Source of the DNA: Planctomycetota bacterium | Lineage (GTDB): Bacteria > Planctomycetota > UBA8108 > UBA1146 | Direction: 5' to 3' | DNA length: 21,395 bases | Assembly (NCBI GenBank): GCA_032128395.1 | Contig: JAQBGV010000146.1 | Span: forward strand, 1 to 21,395 | Shown here: piece after piece, positions 3,480 to 21,359 of the stretch | Numbering within the stretch: position 1 is the stretch's first letter | How the letters are laid out: each line of letters starts with the position of its first letter | Made by a program: the position numbers and the translations under genes | Notes under the pieces: generated by a model | What the model was told of the DNA's origin: nothing | Database searches by the model: none | What the model saw: the letters and a program-made list of their open reading frames with translations, nothing else

Positions 3480-4942
3480 CCGATGATCCGCTCCGTCCGA
3501 TCTGCGTGCCCCGGGCCCCGATGTCCCGCTTCGACGCAGCCGCGTCCGCCGGGGAGGATCTTCCCGGGGTTCGCGAGTCCGAGCGGGTCGATCGCTTGCC
3601 GCACTCGCCGCTGCGTCTCCAGTTCCTCCTCGGTGAACATCAGCCCCATGAACTCTCGCTTCTCGATCCCGATCCCATGTTCCCCCGAGAGAGCGCCCCC
3701 CGCTGCGACGCACAGTCGGAGGATCTCCGCCCCGGCGGCGACGACGCGGGAGGTCTCGTCCGGGTCGCGGGAATCGAAGCTGATGTTGGGGTGGAGGTTT
3801 CCGTCTCCGGCGTGAAAGACATTGCTCAGACGCAAGCGGTGACGACGCCCGATCTCGGCGATCGCATCGACCACCTCGGCCAGGCGCCGCCGCGGGACGA
3901 CCCCATCGAGGACGTAGAGGTCGCGCGCGATCCTTCCCATCGCCCCGAACGCCCCCTTGCGCCCCCGCCACAAGCGGGCGCGCGACTCCGAATCCTCGGC
4001 CTCCTCGAACGCGATCGCCCCCTCCGCCTCGCACGCGTCGCGGATCGCTCGGGTCTCCTCCGCGATCTCCGCGGCCGAGCCTTCCCCCTCGACGAGGAGA
4101 ACGGCATCCGCATCGCTCGGGTAGCCGGCGCGAAACACGCTCGCCTCGACCGCGGCGATGGTCTGCCGATCGAGCACTTCGAGCGCTGCGGGTCGCGTCC
4201 CGCTCGCGATGATCCGCGCCACCGCACGGCAGGATGCGGTGAGCGACGAGAAGCTCGCCAGGAACGTGCGTACGCACTCCGGTCGGCGGACGAGCGCGAC
4301 GGTCGCCTCGACCACGATCCCGAGAGTCCCTTCCGATCCGACGAAGAGCCCTCGATCGTCCGGGCCGTCGACCGAGCCGCTCCGGTCCCCGAGGGTCGTC
4401 CGCGTGCCATCGGGGAGGATGACCTGCAGCTCGAGGATGTGCCGAGTGGTCATCCCGTGGCGGAAGCAGTGGGGCCCGCCTGCGTTCTCCGCGATGTTGC
4501 CGCCGAGGGTGCAGGCGCGTTGGCTAGAAGGATCGGGCGCGTACCGCAATCCGTGGGCACCAGCTGCGACGTCGAGATCGAGATTCACCACGCCGGGCTG
4601 GATCCGTGCGATCCGGTCGAGCGTATCGATCTCGAGGATTCGATCGAGTCGCGTCACATCGAGCAGCCACGCCCGATCGAGCGGGACGGCACCCCCCGAG
4701 AGCCCGGTTCCCGCGCCGCGAGGGAGGAACGGCACGCCCTTGCCTCGACAGGCGAGAACGGCCGAAGCGACCTCGTCCGAATTCTCGAGGAGCAACACCC
4801 CCCCCGGTGTCCCCCGGTGGAGGGCGAGCCCATCGGTGTCGTAGAGCGCGAGTTCTCCCGGGTCGGTCAGAATCCGGTCACGGGGGAGGAACCGGCGCAG
4901 CACGGCGATGAGCGCCGAGTCGATCCGCTTCGGCTCCCGCAC
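3476..4942 (-). CDS. glcD: Glycolate oxidase subunit GlcD (FAD-linked oxidase)
   Basis: 488-aa FAD-linked oxidase: N-terminal FAD-binding domain (GAGTGLSGGAVP) and C-terminal FAD-oxidase_C domain. GTG start at 4942. First gene of the glcDEF operon. Confidence 0.85.
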   Translation of the reverse strand: MREPKRIDSALIAVLRRFLPRDRILTDPGELALYDTDGLALHRGTPGGVLLLENSDEVASAVLACRGKGVPFLPRGAGTGLSGGAVPLDRAWLLDVTRLDRILEIDTLDRIARIQPGVVNLDLDVAAGAHGLRYAPDPSSQRACTLGGNIAENAGGPHCFRHGMTTRHILELQVILPDGTRTTLGDRSGSVDGPDDRGLFVGSEGTLGIVVEATVALVRRPECVRTFLASFSSLTASCRAVARIIASGTRPAALEVLDRQTIAAVEASVFRAGYPSDADAVLLVEGEGSAAEIAEETRAIRDACEAEGAIAFEEAEDSESRARLWRGRKGAFGAMGRIARDLYVLDGVVPRRRLAEVVDAIAEIGRRHRLRLSNVFHAGDGNLHPNISFDSRDPDETSRVVAAGAEILRLCVAAGGALSGEHGIGIEKREFMGLMFTEEELETQRRVRQAIDPLGLANPGKILPGGRGCVEAGHRGPGHADRTERIIG

Positions 4943-12427: not shown

Positions 12428-13765
12428 TCAGAGCAATTCGACTCCGTCCGGCACATCCCCCAGTTCACCGATCTCCGTGCGCACCTTCTCTTCGAAACCC
12501 TCTCGACCCATCCGGGCGAAAGCGATCCACTTTCCGAGCTCGACCCCGGGTTGGTCGTAGGGATCGATCTCGAGCAGCTCCGCCGCGAGGACCGTCGCGA
12601 GCTCGAAGAACGCGAAGAGTGCCCCGAGAGTCCGGGCATCCAGACTCGAGAGCTGGAGGCGGGACACCGGTCGCCCGGCCGCTGCGAGGGATTGCCCCGT
12701 GCCGATCCGCTCCGCCTCGAACAGCGCATCGATGCTCCCTCCACCCAGATACTCGAAGTCCGGATGGAGCGTCCCGCCTGCGGCGGGGAGCGGGGTCACC
12801 GGTGAGATGTCGGCATCGAGTCCGAGGATCAGGAACTGCTTGTCCGCCGGACCCTCGACGAAGAGTTGCACCAGCGAGTGCTGATCGGTCGCACCTTGCG
12901 CGGAAAGCGGCGTGCTTCCCCGGTGGACCACTCGGCCGGCGCGGTCGAGCCGCTTGCCGAGGCTCTCCCCCCACAACTGGGCGAACCAGTCGCCGAAGGT
13001 GCTCAGGCGATCGACGTACCCCATCAGGACCTGGATCCGCTGGCCGCTCCGCTCGGCCCGGAGAACGTGCCCGACCACCCAGTCGAGGAGAGGATGGTCT
13101 TCCCGGTCCCGGACTGCGTGCCAGAGCGACCGCGCGCCTGCGAGCAACTCGGCGGGGTCGCTTCCCACGATCGCGGCGGGGAGGAGTCCGACGGGGGTGA
13201 GCACCGAGAAGCGTCCGCCGACGCGTGGTGGGATGTCGAAGGTAGCGTGTCCATCGCGCGACGCGACCCCCCGCAGTGGGCCGTTCGTTGGATCGGTGAT
13301 CAGCACCATCCGTGAGGACGGATCGATTCCCCCCTCGCGCAGCCAGTCGGCGAAGTAGAGCAGCTGGGCGGCGGTCTCCGCGGTCGAGCCGGATTTCGAC
13401 ACCACCAGGAATCCGGTCCGGGCCGGATCGAGTCGATCGCGGGTACGAGCGATCGTGTCCGGATCGATGTTGTCGATGACGATCAGGCGTTCGGCCTGTC
13501 CGGGAGCGAGAGCATCGCGGACCGCACGGGCGCCGAGAGCGGAGCCTCCGATGCCGAGTAGCACGACATGTTGAAAATCGGCGAGCGCTCTTGCCCCGAT
13601 TCGACAGCGGTCCGCGACCGCGTCTCCCTCTTCCAGGATCTCGATGAAACCCGGAGGGTGGGCGGCGAGGGTCCCGACCATCTTGCGCAGCTGGGCGCGC
13701 GCCGCCGTCGCCTCCTCCGCAAGGTCTGCGGGGAGTGCTCCGCCGAGGTCGAGCCGAAGGGTCAC
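12428..13765 (-). CDS. pgi: Glucose-6-phosphate isomerase (short-type PGI)
   Basis: PGI signature motifs LGIGGSALGA and VVSKSGSTAETA. GTG start at 13765 preceded by GGGGGAG; it overlaps the stop of the upstream aminotransferase (GTGA). The ORF-track upstream extension is Arg-rich and overlaps the aminotransferase in another frame. Confidence 0.85.
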   Translation of the reverse strand: MTLRLDLGGALPADLAEEATAARAQLRKMVGTLAAHPPGFIEILEEGDAVADRCRIGARALADFQHVVLLGIGGSALGARAVRDALAPGQAERLIVIDNIDPDTIARTRDRLDPARTGFLVVSKSGSTAETAAQLLYFADWLREGGIDPSSRMVLITDPTNGPLRGVASRDGHATFDIPPRVGGRFSVLTPVGLLPAAIVGSDPAELLAGARSLWHAVRDREDHPLLDWVVGHVLRAERSGQRIQVLMGYVDRLSTFGDWFAQLWGESLGKRLDRAGRVVHRGSTPLSAQGATDQHSLVQLFVEGPADKQFLILGLDADISPVTPLPAAGGTLHPDFEYLGGGSIDALFEAERIGTGQSLAAAGRPVSRLQLSSLDARTLGALFAFFELATVLAAELLEIDPYDQPGVELGKWIAFARMGREGFEEKVRTEIGELGDVPDGVELL

Positions 13766-14970
13766 TGAGCTTTCTCCCCCGCGGGTGAGAGGTGGGGGTA
13801 CTCCTGCGCGACCTTGGTCCAGCCGGGGAGGGAACGCTCGACGATCTCCCGGGAGACCGCGAACGAGATTCGGAAGTGTCCGGGCGTGCCGAAACCGCGA
13901 CCGGGGACGACGAGGATCCGCTCCTTCACGAGGCGCCCGACGAACTCGACCTCGTTCTCGATCGGCGAGCGGGGGAAGAGGTAGAACGCGCCCCCGGGCG
14001 GTGTGATCGAGAAGCCGAGCTCGGTCAGGTGGTCGAGCAAGATCTGCCGGTTCTCTCGGTAGAGGGTCATGTCGACGGCGAGATCCTGGCAGTCGGCGAC
14101 CGCCAACTGGAACAGGCTCGGGGCGTTGACGAATCCGAGGGTGCGGTTGCAGAAGGTGCAGGCGGCGGCGAGCGCCTCGGCGCCATCGAAGCGGGGCGAA
14201 ATCGCGAGATATCCGATCCGGTCCCCCGCCAGCCCGAGGTCCTTCGAGTGCGAAGTGATCAGTACGGTGTGTTCGTACGCCGGCGGCACCTCCGGGCACT
14301 CGTAGCCTTCGTAGACGATCTTTCGATACGGTTCGTCGGTGATCAGTGTGATCGGTACACCGGCCTTGAGCGATCCTTCGCGGAGCGCGTCGCAGAAGGC
14401 TCGGAGCTCCGTCTCGGAGTAGATCCGACCGGTCGGATTGTTCGGGAAGTTCATGACGACGGCGCGGGTGCGCGGGGTGATCGCCGCGAGGAGTTCTTCG
14501 GCCGGCGGCGGACCGAAGTCCTCCGTCGTGGAGACCTCGACCGGGACCCCGCCGGAGTTCCGGATGTAGAAGCCGTACTCGACGAAGTAGGGGCTGAGGA
14601 GGATCACCTCGTCCCCTGGATCGAGGATCGCGCGGAAGAGCACGTTCAGCGCGCCCCCGGCCCCGACCGTCATCACCACATCTCCTGCCCCGTAGGTCAG
14701 CCCCGTCCTCTGCGTGAGGTGAGACGCGATCTTCTCGCGCACCTCGGGCCACCCCGCGTTCGGCATGTAGCGGTGGATCCCCTCCTGATCGAGGAGCGAG
14801 CGGAGGCGGTCGAGCAGGGCGGGAGGGGGTGGGAGGATCGGATTGCCGAGGGCGAAGTCACAAACGGAGTCCTCGCCGAACTCACGCTTGAGGCGTGCCC
14901 CCTCCTCGAACATGCGCCGAATCCAGGAGGCGCGCTCGAGCGCCTCGGAGACGCTGCGAGAGATCGGCAT
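13762..14970 (-). CDS. Pyridoxal-phosphate-dependent aminotransferase (class I, aspartate/alanine aminotransferase-like)
   Basis: 402 aa; PLP-lysine motif SHSKDLGLAGDRIGY, N-terminal GNP, NPTG motif. ATG at 14970. Confidence 0.85.
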   Translation of the reverse strand: MPISRSVSEALERASWIRRMFEEGARLKREFGEDSVCDFALGNPILPPPPALLDRLRSLLDQEGIHRYMPNAGWPEVREKIASHLTQRTGLTYGAGDVVMTVGAGGALNVLFRAILDPGDEVILLSPYFVEYGFYIRNSGGVPVEVSTTEDFGPPPAEELLAAITPRTRAVVMNFPNNPTGRIYSETELRAFCDALREGSLKAGVPITLITDEPYRKIVYEGYECPEVPPAYEHTVLITSHSKDLGLAGDRIGYLAISPRFDGAEALAAACTFCNRTLGFVNAPSLFQLAVADCQDLAVDMTLYRENRQILLDHLTELGFSITPPGGAFYLFPRSPIENEVEFVGRLVKERILVVPGRGFGTPGHFRISFAVSREIVERSLPGWTKVAQEYPHLSPAGEKAQ

Positions 14971-15005
14971 CGGTCGGTCTCACTTCCCGGGGATCGCAGA
15001 GGCCC

Positions 15006-15051
15006 CTGGATCGAGGGGCGCAGTGATCGAGGAGCACAGTGATCGAGGAGC
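15006..15051. repeat. Direct repeats containing GATCGAGG (CTGGATCGAGGGG, CAGTGATCGAGGAGC, ACAGTGATCGAGGAGC) 36-81 nt upstream of the aminotransferase start
   Basis: Read directly: a 15/16-bp unit repeated twice in tandem, plus a third partial copy. Candidate transcription-factor binding sites. Confidence 0.6.
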
Positions 15052-15182
15052 GGCCGCCGGTTCGGAGCGTGGCGGTCGGATCGCGCTCACACCCCTCGTG
15101 CGGGGCCGAATGCCGCAGATAGGCCGGATGATACGGGTTACGTGAGTCCGCTCCAAGGCGGACTGCCAGTTTCCAGCGCGAA

Positions 15183-15221
15183 CGTACAAAATATTGACAA
15201 CGCCCGGGCGGGCCATACAAT
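15183..15221 (+). promoter_or_regulatory. Near-consensus sigma70 promoter with A/T-rich UP element: -35 TTGACA (15194-15199), 16-nt spacer, -10 TACAAT (15216-15221)
   Basis: Hexamers read directly. Upstream sequence cgtacaaaatat is A/T-rich in an otherwise very GC-rich genome. Predicted TSS about 15228. Confidence 0.5.
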
Positions 15222-15227
15222 CATGGT

Positions 15228-15448
15228 GTTCCGTCAAGATTTCGGACGGGGAGTGCGCGTTTTCCCTGGACCCACAAGTACGGATCGTGGAGACTCGCCC
15301 GTAATGTCCGCTTACTCTCGCTGTGCGGGGACCGGTGCCGGTTCCACCGCTGGAGTGGCGGGGACGACAACAACTGAACCTGTAGACCCGGCCCGGAACA
15401 TTCCCCTAATTTCCCCCTTTCGGGTTGGGTCTCTTTTTCTTGCCTTTT
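15228..15448 (+). ncRNA. Putative small non-coding RNA of about 200 nt (unidentified; 6S-RNA-like size) driven by the consensus promoter. Its ends can pair, and it finishes with a short hairpin and a U-rich tail.
   Basis: No downstream plus-strand gene (the next is 1.1 kb away, beyond a convergent minus gene). GC3 in all frames is low and the region is GC-poor. 5' GGTGTTCCG (15225-15233) pairs with 3' CGGAACATT (15394-15402). CCC-UUUC-GGG hairpin at 15415-15424, then a T-rich run at 15430-15448. tmRNA, RNase P and SRP signature motifs were not found. Confidence 0.3.
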
Positions 15449-15469
15449 CCGCGCCGTCGGGCCCTCTCC

Positions 15470-16421
15470 TCAACCGAGGAGGAATGGATCCGCCGGCGCG
15501 TTCTCATCCCCGAACCGCAACGTTCGCAGGTGATCGATTCCGGCGGCGATGCGTTCGTGGCCCTGCCCAGGGCGGCACTCGATCACGAGCGGTAGCTCCT
15601 CGGGAAGGTCTCGGAGCCGGGCCGAGAGGTTGAGCTCTCCCTCACCCGGGGGGAGGTGGTCCTGGATCCCGATCACATCGTGCACATGGCATCCGAGCAG
15701 AGTGGATCGCATCGCATCCCAAGTCTCCTGGGGAGCTGCGAATCCGAGGACCTCCTGGTAGCGCGCGTGACCGGTGTCGTACCACGTTCCGAGCGGGGCC
15801 CCCTCGAACGTCTGGATCAATCTTCCGAACTCGGCCGGATTGGGGATCTCGTGTGGATAGACCCGATTCTCGAGACCGAGCGAGACTTCCAGCCGTGTGG
15901 CCGCGACGAGGATACGGTCGAGCGAGAGCCTCAGGAGATCGAGGCAGCGCTCCGCGGTCTCGGCGCGCTCTCGCGCGATCTTTCGAATCACTGTCTCGCC
16001 CTCTCCGATCGGCCACTTCCCACCGTCGTAGAGCTCACGGATGCGGTGCTTGGGGTACTCGATGGGGGTCCGTCCCGAGTGACAGACGACGAACCGCGCC
16101 TCGAGGCGGGCGGCCCATTCTAGTGTCTCGATCGTGGCGGCGACCCCGCGGTTGCGCAGGGTGGTGTCCTCCGAGGTGAGCAGCAGGAGATCGCCGGCGG
16201 AGCCCCCTCGGCGACGTGCCACTGGGGACCGGGCAGAAGCTGTGAAGGCTGGCCACGCTCCGCCCAGCCGCTCGGATCGCCCGTCCCATCGGTTCGATCT
16301 CTCCCGCGGTGATCCGATAGCTGAACTCGTACCCCTCGACGTCGTACGAGAGCAACTCGGCGATCCGAGAATCCGCGTCTCCGTCGTTGGGGTCGAGGCA
16401 GGATGTGGAGAGTGCGATCAT
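15470..16421 (-). pseudogene. Sugar-phosphate isomerase/epimerase (xylose-isomerase-like TIM barrel) gene interrupted by a +1 frameshift in a homopolymer (C5 on the plus strand, 16204-16208)
   Basis: N-terminal part (ATG 16421, SD AGAGGAG; MIALSTSCLD...SVASLHSFCPVP) and C-terminal part (..GGSAGDLLLLTSED...VVCHSG...GLEN...YDTGHA...CHVHD) sit in different frames on the same strand. The length of 952 nt is not a multiple of 3. Deleting one G from the coding-strand GGGGG joins them into one 317-codon TIM-barrel protein. Confidence 0.65.
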
Positions 16422-16600
16422 GCGGTGGTGACTCCTCTGGGGGAGAGGATACAGGGAATGCTCGGCGGCGGGGGCGGGACTGAGGAGCAGGGTGATGGGG
16501 AGAATTCGGCCCCGGGCCGCGCCCGATTTCGGAAACGGCGACCGGACCCCCCCATGTACGGTAGACTGCCGCTTTCCGACCGTGGGAGGAGGATCGCGCC

Positions 16601-17212
16601 ATGTCATCGAGCGACATCACGACCGACCTCCTCGCCCGCCTCGAGAATTACCTCACCGTCACCCGCGAAGCCCTCACGACGATCGAACTCCCGCTGGTCG
16701 CTCGCGTCGTGACGATGATCGAGGAGGCGTACCGCGACGATCGCCGCGTCCTGGTCTTCGGCAACGGGGGGAGTGCGACGACCGCATCCCACCTCGCGGA
16801 GGACCTCGCGACCTACGCGATCCCCTTCACGGAGTCGCGGCGATTGCAGGTGCTCTCCCTCTCCGACAGTCCTTCGGTGATCACCGCTCTCGCGAATGAC
16901 CTCTCCTTCGAAGAAGTGTTCGCGGAACAGATCCAGCAATGGGCGCGTCCGGCGGATCTGGTGATCGCGATGAGTGGCTCCGGGAACTCTCCGAACATCA
17001 TCGCAGGGATCGAGCGGGCCCGCAGGATCGGCTGCCCGACGGTGGGGATGACCGGTTTCGACGGTGGCCGTCTGCGCGAATTGGTCGACGTGGCGCTCCA
17101 CGTCGACGTCGGCACGATGCAGAACGCCCAGGATGGTCACATGGTGATCGTGCACCTGATCATCGATGGCTTCCGACACCGAGTTCGTGCTGCGCTCGGT
17201 GAGAGCGGGTGA
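16601..17212 (+). CDS. gmhA: D-sedoheptulose-7-phosphate isomerase (SIS-domain phosphoheptose isomerase)
   Basis: ATG at 16601 preceded by GGGAGGAGGA. SIS-domain motifs VFGNGGSATTASHLAEDL and MSGSGNSPNI; about 200 aa, typical of GmhA. Confidence 0.8.
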   Translation: MSSSDITTDLLARLENYLTVTREALTTIELPLVARVVTMIEEAYRDDRRVLVFGNGGSATTASHLAEDLATYAIPFTESRRLQVLSLSDSPSVITALANDLSFEEVFAEQIQQWARPADLVIAMSGSGNSPNIIAGIERARRIGCPTVGMTGFDGGRLRELVDVALHVDVGTMQNAQDGHMVIVHLIIDGFRHRVRAALGESG

Positions 17213-17781
17213 CCTCGAGGGGCGTGTTCCTCGACCGGGACGGGGTGATCAACCGCTACCTTATCGACTACGTCAGAACCCTGGCCGACTTCGAGTACGA
17301 GTCCGGCGCCGCGGAGGCGTTTCGGATCCTGGGTGAGATCGGGCTCCCGATCGTGGTCGTCACGAATCAGTCGGGGATCGGGCGGGGGTACACGACGGCT
17401 GCCGCGGTCGAGGCGATCCACGCGCGACTGTCGACGGACGCCGCGCGCTGGGGAGGACCGATCTCGTCGATCGAGATTTGCCCCCACACCCCGGATGATC
17501 GCTGTGCCTGCCGGAAGCCCGAGTCCGAGCTCTTCCGGCGCGCCTCGGCTCGGTTCGGCTTCGACCTCGAGGGCTCGTTCATGATCGGGGATGCTCCGAG
17601 CGATATCGAGGCGGCGCAGCGACTCGCCATTCGAGCGGTGCGTGTCGGCACCGGTCGGGGGGGCGAGCCCTTGCCGATCGGAATCGCGGCGGAAACGACG
17701 GTCGGGGAGATCGAGGAGGCCGCGCGATGGATCGCCACTCAACACCGAGCGACCCACCCAGAAGAAGGATCTGAGCGATGA
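17209..17781 (+). CDS. gmhB: D-glycero-D-manno-heptose-1,7-bisphosphate phosphatase (HAD-IIIA)
   Basis: GTG start overlaps the gmhA stop (GTGA). HAD motif I FLDRDGVIN. Zinc-binding CPH...CxCRKP insertion typical of GmhB. HAD motifs III/IV (GDAPSD). Confidence 0.8.
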   Translation: MTSRGVFLDRDGVINRYLIDYVRTLADFEYESGAAEAFRILGEIGLPIVVVTNQSGIGRGYTTAAAVEAIHARLSTDAARWGGPISSIEICPHTPDDRCACRKPESELFRRASARFGFDLEGSFMIGDAPSDIEAAQRLAIRAVRVGTGRGGEPLPIGIAAETTVGEIEEAARWIATQHRATHPEEGSER

Positions 17782-20010
17782 ACGAACTCCGAGGTTGCTT
17801 CTCCAGCGGACTCGCCCTCGGTGTCGCGCTGCTCTCGGGGTGCGCTGGGAGCTCGACGCGGGTCGTCGACGAAGGTCGCGCTTCCTCGTGGGACCCGACC
17901 CCACCGCCTCTCGCCGCAGTGACGCGGGTCTTCGAGGGGCGCGAGCGGTGAGGAGATCGACCTCCTCGCGCTCATCCGGGCACTCTCTTCGGCGGACGTC
18001 GTTTTCCTCGGCGAGACGCACCTCGATGACGTGACCCACCGCACGGAGCACGCGATCCTCGAGGGATTGATCGATGCCAAGCGAGGACGGGTGGTCCTCG
18101 CGATGGAGATGTTCACGAGGGATGACCAACCCGCTCTCGATCGCTATCTCGCGGGACAGATCGACGAAGCCACGTTCCTCGCGGAGGCGCAAGAATGGGC
18201 GAACTACCACACGGGCTACCGGCCGCTCATCGAGTCGTCGCGCCGAGCGGGGGTTCCGGTCGTCGGCTCGAACCTCTCATCCGCCCTCCGGCGGAAACTC
18301 GCCTTCGGCGGGAGCGAGGCCTTCGCGGCGCTCACCGACCTGGAGCGGCAGGGGGCTGCGGCGGAGCTCTTCCCCAACTCACCCGACTACTGGGAGCGTT
18401 TCGACCGCACGCTGCGGGGGCACATGGGAGGACCGGGTGCGACCGACCCCGAGGCGCGGCTCTACTCGATCCAGAGCCTTTGGGACAACACCATGGGAGA
18501 GTCGTGCGCGCGTGCCCTCGCGGCGCATCCGGGCCACCTCGTCGTGCACGTCAACGGTGGCTTCCACTCCTGGCGCGGTCTCGGGACCGCCGAGCAGCTC
18601 CGTCTCCGAGCCCCGGACGCGCACGTGGCCACGGTACAGATCGTGCCGGTCGGTGATCTACCGGCGGTCGACCCGGAGTCGGGAGAGGAGAGCGCGGACT
18701 TCGTCGTCTACGCCGAGACCAGGGCGCGGGGGCTCTCCGAAGGAACCCATGCGGTCATCGTCGGCCGTGAACTCCGCTACCGCCTCCACGTTCCCGACGG
18801 AAAAGGACCGTGGCCGCTCTTGATCTGGTGTCCGGATGAGGGAGCGGGGGCTCCCGACGAAGCGAAGCGATGGGAACTTCTCATCGGGGACGACGCCGCC
18901 ATCGCTGTGGTCGAGCATCCCTACCCGGTCATCGAGGAGGACCTCCACGCGAGCGGCCGTTTCAGCTGGGACGAGACCTTCTTCGAGGACCTCGGAGCGA
19001 TCGGTTCGGGGCTCGCCCGAGTGCGCGATGCGATCACCAGGGCGCACCCGATCGATCGAGGTCGCGTGCTCTACGCTGGCATCGGGGCGGGGGGGCGAGT
19101 CGTGGCCACTGCGCGGTGGCAGGATCGTGATGGTCCGGCGGCACTCGCGATCGCACCGGGTCCACTCGGTCGTCTGATCGAGGGCGGACTCTCCGATCCG
19201 GAGGAGCTCCGCGGCGGGGAACTCCGGGTGCTCGCGACGTCTGCGAACCTGGAGAGTTGGGAATCGGAGATCGCTGATCGGATCGAAGTCGGGTTCCCCG
19301 GCCGCGTCGTCGAACTCGCGGCGGGGGGGGACGGAGTCGACGCGGTGCGAACCGCTCTCGGACTCGTATCGCCCGAGGCACTAGAGGACCCCAAGATTCT
19401 TTGGATCGCGCACGGTTCGCCTCTGGCGCGGCAGTGGGCGGCGCTCGCTGCAGCGCAGCTCGGGGGGAGCTGGCGAGTCGACGTGCTGTCGGTGGGCGGG
19501 GTGGATCTCACAGACGGTCTCGGCGCCGGCTCGATCTGCCTCGAGACGGATCTCGCCGCCGAGAGTCTCGCCGACGCGGACCTCGTGTTGCTGCTGCGGC
19601 CGATCTTCTCCGCGCAAGACCTCGCCTCCGGCGTGGGGATCCCGCTCCCGTCCGGCCCCTTCGGGGGAACGGTGGTGCTCGTCCTACCGCCCGGTCGTTC
19701 CGAAGACCGCAGCGCCGCTTGGCACCGTCTCGAGGAAGAGGATGTCACCCGCAAGAGGAGCCGCTTCGTCGGGCTCCGCGTCGCCGAGACCGGAACCGTG
19801 CGCGATCTTCCTGCGGTCCTCGATGAACTGCGTGCGGAGGGGAAGAGCGTGGTCCGGATCGCGCCCGTCAGGTTCTGTGCAACGGCGGAGGAGATGCGAA
19901 CGTTGCGCGCGAGCACCGTGGGGCACGACGAGGGGTTGAGGATCTCGTGGACGCCGGGGTTGGGCGGGGAGATCTGGCGGGTGCTCGGGGAGAGTGCCGG
20001 GGTTCGCTAA
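17778..20010 (+). pseudogene. Large lipoprotein with N-terminal ChaN/TIKI-superfamily (Cofac_haem_bdg-like) domain and a C-terminal extension of about 440 aa. The signal peptide and the body are in different frames (frameshift at the G4 run 17936-17939).
   Basis: ATG at 17778 overlaps the gmhB stop (ATGA) and encodes a lipoprotein signal with lipobox LSGC (MNELRGCFSSGLALGVALLSGCAGSS...), terminating at 17951. The ChaN-like domain (EEIDLLALIRALSSADVVFLGETHLDD...HVNGGFHSWRG) is open from 17923 in the other frame with no start codon before the GTG at 18031. The total of 2233 nt is not a multiple of 3. Removing one G at 17936-17939 fuses the two. Confidence 0.65.
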
Positions 20011-21359
20011 ACGCACCCGTAGGCGATCATCGCATCCGCCACCTTGATGAACCCCGCGATGTTCGCGCCGCGCACATAGTGGATCGTGCTCTCCCCCTGG
20101 GTCGATCCCCAGGTGACACATTGCAGGTGGATCTTGCGCATGATGTCGCGGAGGCGCGCGTCGACTTCTTCGCGTGTCCAGCTCAACCGCAGCGCGTTCT
20201 GGCTCTGCTCGAGACCGGAGACTGCGACTCCGCCGGCGTTGGCCGCCTTCGAGGGAGCGTAGAGGATCCCGGCCGTAAGGAAAGCGTGCGCTCCGGGGAG
20301 CTCGGTCGGCATGTTCGCCCCTTCGCACACCAACTGGATCCCGTTGCCGAGCAGGACCCGAGCATCGTGCTCCGAGATCTCGTTCTGGGTGGCGCACGGG
20401 AACGCGACATCCGCGGGAACTCCCCAGGGGCGGAGATCCCCGTGGAACTCGCATCCGAACTTCTCGGCATACTCGGAGATGCGGCCGCGCCTCACCTCCT
20501 TCAGGTCCTTCAGCCAGGCGAGCTTCTCTTCGTTGATCCCATCCGGGTCGTGGATGAACCCGCTCGAGTCGCTCGCGGTCAGCACCTTGGCGCCGAGTGC
20601 GATCGCCTTCTCGATGGTGTAGATCGCCACGTTCCCCGAGCCGGAGACGAGGCAGGTCTTGCCCTCGAGGGAGTCCCCTCGGTGGTTCAGCATCTCCTGC
20701 GCGAAGTACACGCAGCCGTAGCCGGTCGCCTCGGTCCGCACCAAGCTGCCGCCGAAGGCGAGCCCCTTGCCGGTGATGAACCCCGTGAACCGGTTGTGAA
20801 TCTGCTTGTACTTGCCGAAGAGGTAGCTGATCTCGCGAGACCCGACGCCGATGTCCCCGGCCGGGATGTCGGTGTGTTCGCCGATGTGACGAGAGAGCTC
20901 GATCATCATCGACTGGCAGAACCTCATCACCTCGCGATCGGATTTTCCCTTCGGATTGAAGTTGGATCCCCCCTTCGCTCCTCCCATCGGAAGCGTGGTG
21001 AGGCTGTTCTTGAAGGTCTGCTCGAAGCCGAGGAACTTCAAAATGCTGAGGGTCACGGAGGGATGAAAACGGAGTCCACCCTTGTAGGGGCCGATCGAGT
21101 TGTTGAACTGAACCCGCCAGGCGCGGTTGGTCCGGATGTTCCCCAGGTCGTCCTCCCAGCAGACTCGGAAGATGATGATCCGGTCCGGCTCGGTCATCCG
21201 ATCGAGGATACTCTCTTCGCGGTACTGAGGATGTTCATCCATGAACGGGAGGATCGTCTCTGCGAACTCGCGGACCGCTTGGAGAAACTCGGGCTCCCCG
21301 GGGTTTCGCCGTTCGACTCCGGACATGAAGTCTTCGAGCTGCTGGCGCGGATCGGGCAT
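20007..21359 (-). CDS. gdhA: NADP-specific glutamate dehydrogenase
   Basis: 450 aa with the Glu/Leu/Phe/Val dehydrogenase signature GGAKGG and an NAD(P)-binding GSGNVA motif. ATG at 21359 preceded by GAGGAGG. Its stop overlaps the stop of the convergent ChaN-like gene. Confidence 0.9.
   Translation of the reverse strand: MPDPRQQLEDFMSGVERRNPGEPEFLQAVREFAETILPFMDEHPQYREESILDRMTEPDRIIIFRVCWEDDLGNIRTNRAWRVQFNNSIGPYKGGLRFHPSVTLSILKFLGFEQTFKNSLTTLPMGGAKGGSNFNPKGKSDREVMRFCQSMMIELSRHIGEHTDIPAGDIGVGSREISYLFGKYKQIHNRFTGFITGKGLAFGGSLVRTEATGYGCVYFAQEMLNHRGDSLEGKTCLVSGSGNVAIYTIEKAIALGAKVLTASDSSGFIHDPDGINEEKLAWLKDLKEVRRGRISEYAEKFGCEFHGDLRPWGVPADVAFPCATQNEISEHDARVLLGNGIQLVCEGANMPTELPGAHAFLTAGILYAPSKAANAGGVAVSGLEQSQNALRLSWTREEVDARLRDIMRKIHLQCVTWGSTQGESTIHYVRGANIAGFIKVADAMIAYGCV

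Follow-up and report, generated by a model that had tools for sequence, protein, structure and literature searches.

The question raised by this locus is what a near-perfect sigma70 promoter on the plus strand would transcribe in a gap between two minus-strand genes. The window, a 21,395-nt stretch of DNA from a Planctomycetota bacterium that was analysed as a whole, contains at 14971–15469 an intergenic region bounded by the start of a class I/II aminotransferase gene (13762–14970, minus strand; NCBIfam PRK06836 type, 514.8 bits) and by the stop, at 15470, of a xylose-isomerase-like TIM-barrel gene that lies on the minus strand and is convergent to the region. In the public annotation of locus L132 (GCA_032124895.1), which comes from the same organism, the TIM-barrel protein has 316 aa, the aminotransferase and pgi genes overlap by 4 nt and no gene is called in the gap. 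The initial annotation had placed here a non-coding transcript of ~200 nt, divergent from a pgi-aminotransferase operon and convergent with the TIM-barrel gene, and this gene context holds. The evidence set out below makes it very probable that the plus strand carries an independent non-coding small RNA gene extending from 15228 (or ~15302) to ~15438.

The locus and its promoters

The segment 15183–15450 has a GC content of 57.8% compared with 67.2% for the window, about 3 sd low (300-nt windows, sd 2.8%). The GC-poor island of the initial annotation thus stands for this segment; it does not stand for the intergenic region as a whole, which at 62.9% GC is only mildly low, and a second stretch at 20750–21100, located within the glutamate dehydrogenase gene (20007–21359, minus strand), is equally low (~58%).

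Promoter P1 consists of TTGACA (15194–15199), a 16-nt spacer and TACAAT (15216–15221), an 11/12 match that is preceded by the UP-like A/T tract ACAAAATA at 15186–15193 and has its predicted start at ~15228. No other site on either strand of the 21.4-kb window reaches 10/12 matches; an 11/12 site arose in none of 200 dinucleotide shuffles of the window, in which sites of at least 10/12 averaged 0.1. The homologous promoters of relatives are likewise preceded by A/T tracts at this position, and TTGACA-16/17-TAnAnT is found at the same place in L135, L139, L138/L087 and L001. P1 combines the hexamers, the 16–18 nt spacing, the rarity beyond chance and the conservation expected of a sigma70-type promoter, which supports the near-perfect plus-strand promoter of the initial annotation, A/T tract included, as a genuine orphan promoter predicted from sequence.

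An inner promoter-like element, P2, which the initial annotation had missed, emerges on alignment to relatives at 15260–15295 on the plus strand. It comprises a T-tract (15260–63), TGGACC (15267–72), a 17-nt spacer containing CGTGGAG, and GAGACT (15290–95), is preceded by GTTTTCC and has a predicted start at ~15302. The pattern TGGAyN-17-GA[GC]ACT recurs in all five group-A relatives, and the P2 of the window aligns with the sequence TTTTT-CTGGAC-17-GACAAT, the sole promoter that groups C, D and E and L083 have in front of the RNA. P1-type sequences (TTGACA-16/18-TAnnnT) are present in the window, L135, L139, L138/L087, L001, L010, L011, L144 and L146, and five group-A members, the window among them, possess both P1 and P2. 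P1 is an upstream addition found only in some lineages, a restriction that had likewise gone unnoticed, and P2 may serve as a promoter in the window as well. In all homologues an A/T tract, a -35-like hexamer, a 17-nt spacer (16 nt in the window) and a -10-like nAnAnT stand at a plausible distance, and promoter hexamers and spacing are kept in every homologue despite diverged flanks. Three TGGAC-like pentamers lie in phase across P2, at 0, +11 and +21/22 (window 15267–15295; regions of L003, L008 and L103), and in group D (L085, L103, L113) both inner pentamers read GTCCAC, the reverse complement of GTGGAC. This phasing hints at a possible transcription-factor site.

On the opposite strand, a putative promoter of the divergent aminotransferase-pgi operon can be read at 15128–15156, with TTGGAG (15156–15151), a 17-nt spacer and TATCAT (15133–15128). 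Its pattern, TTGGnn/TTGCCn-17-TATCAT/TATCCT/TATAAT, is kept at the equivalent place in L135 and in groups C, D and E, and its -35 element stands back-to-back with that of P1, only ~37 bp apart. The position of this promoter implies a long 5' UTR for the aminotransferase-pgi mRNA, predicted at ~90–150 nt across lineages. Within the predicted ~150-nt leader of the window lies a 16-nt tandem repeat of 2.8 copies (15009–15052; GATCGAGGAGCGCAGT), reading ...CUCCUCGAUCACUG... on the aminotransferase mRNA strand, and none was seen in other lineages. Adjoining the RNA gene on the other side, the block 15470–20010 encodes the TIM-barrel protein (AP_endonuc_2), a SIS-domain protein (GmhA-like) and a HAD phosphatase with FLDRDGVIN (GmhB-like). 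The TIM-barrel/SIS/HAD block is kept in several of the homologous loci; in the window and L132, which represent the window lineage, it is followed by a ChaN/Cofac_haem_bdg protein.

The terminator hairpin and the variable body

The transcript predicted from P1 runs from 15228 to ~15438 and ends at an intrinsic terminator, so that its length of ~210 nt (211) agrees with the ~200 nt first proposed. The terminator hairpin (15384–15432, plus strand) has a 15-bp stem, formed by 15384–15398 and 15418–15432 with three G.U pairs, and a 19-nt loop, CAUUCCCCUAAUUUCCCCC (15399–15417), which is unpaired in both the MFE and the centroid fold. With a stem of -24.4 kcal/mol followed directly by the U-run CUUUUUCUU (15433–15441), the arrangement is that of an intrinsic terminator; it is kept in all homologues, each with a T-run after the stem, and it accounts for the U-rich tail that had been recognised from the letters. 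Upstream of the stem lies a single-stranded linker (15366–15383) that is mostly unpaired in the folds and ends in a semi-conserved CCUGUA; in the module alignment, at least 90% of the 20 sequences have CCUG(U/A)A before the stem. A simple terminator scan, covering loops of 3–8 nt only, missed the hairpin because its 19-nt loop is atypically large, and a generic inverted-repeat finder did not report it because three of its pairs are G.T.

The hairpin is near-invariant, with ~95% identity in relatives, and it was not noticed in the initial annotation. Its folding is strand-specific, reaching z -3.57 on the plus strand (1 of 200 shuffles as good) and z +0.37 on the minus strand, on which the side of the hairpin also lacks a U-run. 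Three stem pairs are G.U in nearly all sequences and would be A.C on the opposite strand; together with the strand-specific folding, these fixed G.U pairs assign the RNA to the plus strand. Across 20 distinct sequences 99.3% of the stem cells are standard pairs, and pairing drops to 21–60% when the partners are slid by 1–3 columns. Changes that preserve pairing include A-U to G-C in L011, G.U to A-U in L010 and L146 and C-G to U.G in L001, as well as a G-C/G.U exchange that separates the UUUCGGG form from the UUCUGGG form; in L135 one G.U has become G-C and the adjacent G.U a G.A mismatch. The observed covariation score is reached by 18 of 500 shuffles. Support from covariation is modest since 8 of the 15 stem pairs never vary, and the statistics are weak since only about five deep lineages are sampled. 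The initial annotation had suggested conservation with covarying pairs as a check on the RNA, and the near-invariant 3' hairpin answers to the first part, with little covariation and no conservation of the 5' body. The stem appears to be under constraint in its sequence as such. The two C-runs of the loop, AUUCCCC and AUUUCCCCC, are invariant in the 20 sequences, and variation within the loop is confined to the linker between them, which reads UAAUUU, AAUUU, UAUUU or UAACUU.

The 5' body is of another kind. It ranges from ~50 to ~430 nt across homologues with no common structure; the distance from the predicted start to the terminator is ~100 nt in L011, 187–230 nt in most lineages, 279–384 nt in group E and 481 nt in L001; close relatives differ in length by 1–2 nt. 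A short 5' hairpin of the P1 transcript, UCCGUC/GGACGG(G), can be read directly at 15230–15250 and has similar arms in L135 and L138, and the P1-specific leader 15228–15301 is not unusually structured (z +1.03). The core RNA from 15302 to 15441, the transcript that P2 would yield, folds (MFE, z -1.95) into a long 5' hairpin, the single-stranded A/C-rich linker and the terminator hairpin, of which the lineage-specific 5' stem-loop domain (15306–15365) is conserved among close relatives only. When the four nearest relatives are aligned, the 3' hairpin alone remains as consensus structure. For the full 225-nt stretch the MFE is multi-branched and no better than that of shuffles (z +0.46), and the description of the full P1 transcript as a highly structured RNA was rejected on this value.

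The initial annotation had also noted complementary 5' and 3' ends, GGUGUUCCG and CGGAACAUU. The letters are present and allow seven Watson-Crick and two G.U pairs, but the pairing is neither used in the MFE nor conserved. CGGAACAUU is made up of the 5' arm of the conserved stem (CGGAA) and the start of the loop (CAUU), so that end pairing competes with the terminator stem, and the 5' partner is absent in L135, L138, L139 and L001. A pseudoknot in which GGGGA motifs in the 5' body would pair with AUUCCCC in the loop was rejected as well, the duplex energy being non-significant in most lineages (200 shuffles). The partner of GGGG in groups C and D is not the loop but a nearby CCCC/CCCUG further downstream, with a compensating change between AUCAGGG/CCCUGAU in L085 and AUC-U-GGGG/CCCCGAU in L103. 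The long group-E RNAs (326–384 nt; L008, L009, L012, L015, L016) share an internal palindromic hairpin, GGGAUCUGGGGAUCCC, and also a GCACCGCnUGGGUGC hairpin, the second with compensating changes to CCACUUGGGUGG in L012 and to CCACCGCUGGAGUGG in the window (15343–15357). Directly after the terminator, short tandem repeats are seen in L009 (GCCGGGACTCCTGATCTTT-like units) and L010 (TTGGCTTCCCCTGGCTA-like units).

An invariant stem and loop attached to a hypervariable body mark the 3' hairpin as the functional unit. The best explanation of this pattern is that the terminator hairpin with its C-rich loop would constitute the functional core of the RNA.

Identity and distribution

Neither the window nor any of 12 homologous loci matched an Rfam 15 family at the gathering score, 14900–15550 matched none at E<=10, and a search with the long L008 form returned nothing relevant. 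Since no known family, leader or cis element was identified by Rfam, and since ARAGORN found no tRNA or tmRNA in the window, the earlier failure to recognise tmRNA, RNase P or SRP motifs by eye is corroborated. The sequence was not found in a literature search, and a keyword search of the literature for Planctomycetota sRNAs returned no paper.

Protein-coding potential had been dismissed from the start, and rightly so. The only long plus-strand ORF, 15142–15633, has no Pfam match, is not called in the public annotation of L132, crosses the terminator and runs antisense into the TIM-barrel gene. Nor is any ORF conserved, given the 1-nt indels in the loop, which belongs to the most conserved segment, and the 1–2-nt length differences between close relatives. 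A candidate minus-strand peptide, KKRPNP(K/E)GGN*, read across the hairpin was discarded because 1-nt loop indels in L001, L085 and L103 destroy both its frame and its stop. The RNA is also not a leader or riboswitch, since the downstream gene is convergent in every lineage; the variable 5' domain and the lack of a conserved sensor likewise rule out a cis-regulatory leader.

The distribution of the RNA was examined with the aminotransferase as anchor in 80 loci from species-representative genomes, to which closer aminotransferase homologues were added (L132, L135, L138, L139, L141/142, L144/145, L146). In 14 Planctomycetota MAGs (locus GC 50–64%), the segment 15379–15438 is 90–95% identical upstream of an aminotransferase that is itself only 58–76% identical. 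When metagenome contigs are added, the hairpin keeps ~95% identity across more than 25 contigs from Planctomycetota MAGs and metagenomes (50–71% GC), beside aminotransferases with identities of 58–82%; the ~95% is kept where the flanking protein falls to 58–61%. A covariance model of the 82-nt module, R1, found exactly one copy per locus with E values of 1e-20 to 1e-29, and found none in aminotransferase loci from outside the Planctomycetota. The module is absent from L140, L147 and L017. In L002 the covariance model gives a degenerate copy (3782–3856, minus strand; GGTCTGGCCCGGACTTCCCATGTTCTCCGGGTTGGCC; 12.7 bits, E 0.35) that has a shortened loop and no T-run and adjoins the aminotransferase in the same position as in other loci.

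The gene neighbourhood is equally constant. A context-free DNA scan of metagenome contigs with the loop pattern yielded 51 stretches, 12 of which contain the full hairpin, and all metagenome copies with enough flank have a divergent aminotransferase on one side and a convergent ORF on the other. The tail of this ORF, resembling P-x-P-G-x-P-[FW], identifies it as a homologue of the TIM-barrel gene. In every lineage the downstream gene is convergent and the terminator lies 32–250 nt beyond its stop codon, without antisense overlap. A mobile or repeated element (REP/MITE or phage-borne) was ruled out by the single copy, the fixed synteny and the absence of any match to the module among viral contigs. 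In these searches the family did not extend beyond a clade of Planctomycetota that is uncultured and mostly marine, with contigs from the Lau Basin/Abe hydrothermal plume and from deep water columns of the Mediterranean and Pacific, and the suggestion of a lineage-specific or novel sRNA is borne out. It is, on this reading, a previously undescribed, clade-specific sRNA family of a known general kind.

Possible modes of action

That general kind includes several RNAs that act through short unpaired motifs. RsaE/RoxS of Firmicutes uses unpaired C-rich (UCCC) motifs to target Shine-Dalgarno regions, and in RNAIII the loop of the terminator hairpin H14 is itself the pairing module, as is proposed here for the loop of the terminator hairpin. 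Both belong to a different phylum and have no known homology to the Planctomycetota RNA, their motifs are shorter, and the GGAGG-like Shine-Dalgarno sequence of this clade is an imperfect match to a pure C-run. In Yfr1, a short unpaired motif located between two hairpins is almost invariant clade-wide and the rest drifts; the RNA described here shares the near-invariant unpaired motif but has it in the terminator loop, on a stem that is invariant too. The Xanthomonas RNA sX13 has three stem-loops with CCCC motifs and is not known to have a fixed synteny. It is described as an abundant sRNA whose C-rich loop motifs act on G-rich motifs in mRNAs (PMC3771888), and the 6C sRNA of Actinobacteria as pairing through C-rich loops with G-rich mRNA sites, an action that the title of the paper presents as independent of RNA chaperones (PMC6486639). 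Like sX13, the present RNA has a C-rich loop motif, but its sequence is unrelated and without Rfam match, and its synteny is fixed. With 6C it shares the character of a small RNA of high-GC bacteria with a conserved C-rich apical loop, whereas in 6C each of two hairpins bears one such loop and here both C-runs lie in one 19-nt terminator loop; the phylum also differs, no Rfam family matches at E<=10, and target pairing is proposed by analogy. The RNA is an analogue rather than a member of the 6C, sX13 and RsaE families (no Rfam 15 match at E<=10).

By this analogy, transcription would start at the consensus sigma70 promoter P1, and probably also at the inner, ancestral P2, and stop at the strong intrinsic terminator. 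The 15-bp stem would display the 19-nt loop with its two C-runs, and the 5' body would be a lineage-specific, replaceable scaffold. Acting in trans, the exposed C-runs would pair with several mRNAs at G-rich, Shine-Dalgarno-like stretches and so change how the mRNAs are translated or how stable they are. As a whole, the best explanation is a clade-specific trans-acting sRNA operating through its C-rich terminator loop; it is favoured tentatively and somewhat short of an even chance, and the pairing mechanism taken by itself is possible with rather more doubt. Promoter, terminator, strand, non-coding nature, conservation, synteny and single copy are established by the sequence analysis; expression level, use of P2, action in trans and targets are the parts of this account that we infer. 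The exposure of C-runs in an apical loop, a trait of C-rich-loop sRNAs, is present. When the loop was compared, in six lineages, with the translation-initiation regions belonging to the aminotransferase, pgi, TIM-barrel, SIS and HAD genes, no complementary site recurred, and the Shine-Dalgarno sequences of neighbouring genes in the clade are GGAGG/GAGGA-like, a mismatch to the pure C-run.

The invariance of the stem is more than a seed plus terminator needs and fits better with recognition by a protein. This leads to the alternative of a protein-binding decoy or scaffold RNA, in which the invariant hairpin would be read by a conserved RNA-binding protein, such as a poly(C) binder of the KH type or a chaperone recognising the U-tail, which the RNA would titrate or deliver instead of pairing with mRNAs. 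It is unlikely, though with a real share of the probability, and as a mechanism it is a pure inference. The stem sequence and three G.U positions fixed across genomes of 50–71% GC speak for it, as do the two tandem AUU(U)CCCC repeats, which resemble a bipartite protein site, the lack of an mRNA complement in the neighbouring genes scanned and a 5' body that is dispensable in sequence. The U-tail and the single-stranded A/C-rich linker, features relevant to Hfq binding, are present at the level of sequence and fold. However, each RNA has one hairpin, compared with the many sites of the known sponges CsrB and RsmZ, and the conserved neighbourhood includes no gene for a candidate protein. In a broader version, the invariant hairpin would serve for recognition in an as yet undescribed ribonucleoprotein or global regulator that is peculiar to this Planctomycetota clade. 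The RNA would then be of a housekeeping type and of the rank of CsrB or 6S, its body free to evolve beside a fixed hairpin that binds a protein or the ribosome, and would not be an ordinary base-pairing sRNA; we regard this as a long shot. The strict synteny, with the same two flanking genes in every lineage with flanks, would in turn be explained by a local role in cis, be it interference or coupling with the aminotransferase promoter, whose -35 element is so close to that of P1 (~37 bp), or protection or termination against the convergent TIM-barrel transcript. Such a role is improbable, as it needs no ~95% identity over a 55-nt stretch, the hairpin is poor on the minus strand (z +0.37) and has no U-run there, the terminator 32–250 nt beyond the convergent stop excludes antisense overlap, and the loop has no match to neighbouring initiation regions.

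Two further readings carry very little weight. A small protein-coding or leaderless mRNA could be argued from a GTG at 15226 in frame with ORF 15142–15633 and from the minus-strand reading ...KKRPNP(K/E)GGN* across the hairpin in several lineages, but the ORF lacks a Pfam match, is uncalled in the public annotation and crosses the terminator, and the loop indels of L001, L085 and L103 break the minus-strand frame; a chance pairing of promoter and terminator without function is opposed by a promoter, a strand-specific hairpin and a synteny conserved far beyond chance, and this group of explanations as a whole is very improbable. Still harder to credit is the 6S-like RNA favoured in the initial annotation, which would mimic open promoter DNA and bind RNA polymerase. 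The size of the P1 transcript (~210 nt) and its strong promoter are indeed like those of 6S RNA, but the structure and covariance-model comparisons go against it: there is no Rfam 6S match even at E<=10, the fold has no rod, closing stem or central bubble (MFE z +0.46), the terminal hairpin is the only conserved structure in homologues of 100–481 nt, and the end pairing is not conserved.

RNA regulators are almost uncharted in the Planctomycetota. The locus provides a concrete RNA family, modelled as R1, with a clear promoter, terminator, strand and phylogenetic range, whose hosts are abundant uncultured marine and deep-sea lineages. Its pattern of conservation is unusual in that an invariant terminator hairpin is joined to a hypervariable body, with fixed synteny and, in one lineage, dual promoters, and the invariant 3' hairpin eases finding the RNA in metatranscriptomes. 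Should the C-rich loop act on ribosome-binding regions rich in G, a mechanism of Actinobacteria, Firmicutes and Xanthomonas would be extended to another phylum; if the hairpin binds a protein instead, it would point to a new RNA-protein system. Current understanding is not overturned by either, and the family offers an entry point into the RNA regulation of an uncultured, ecologically abundant phylum.
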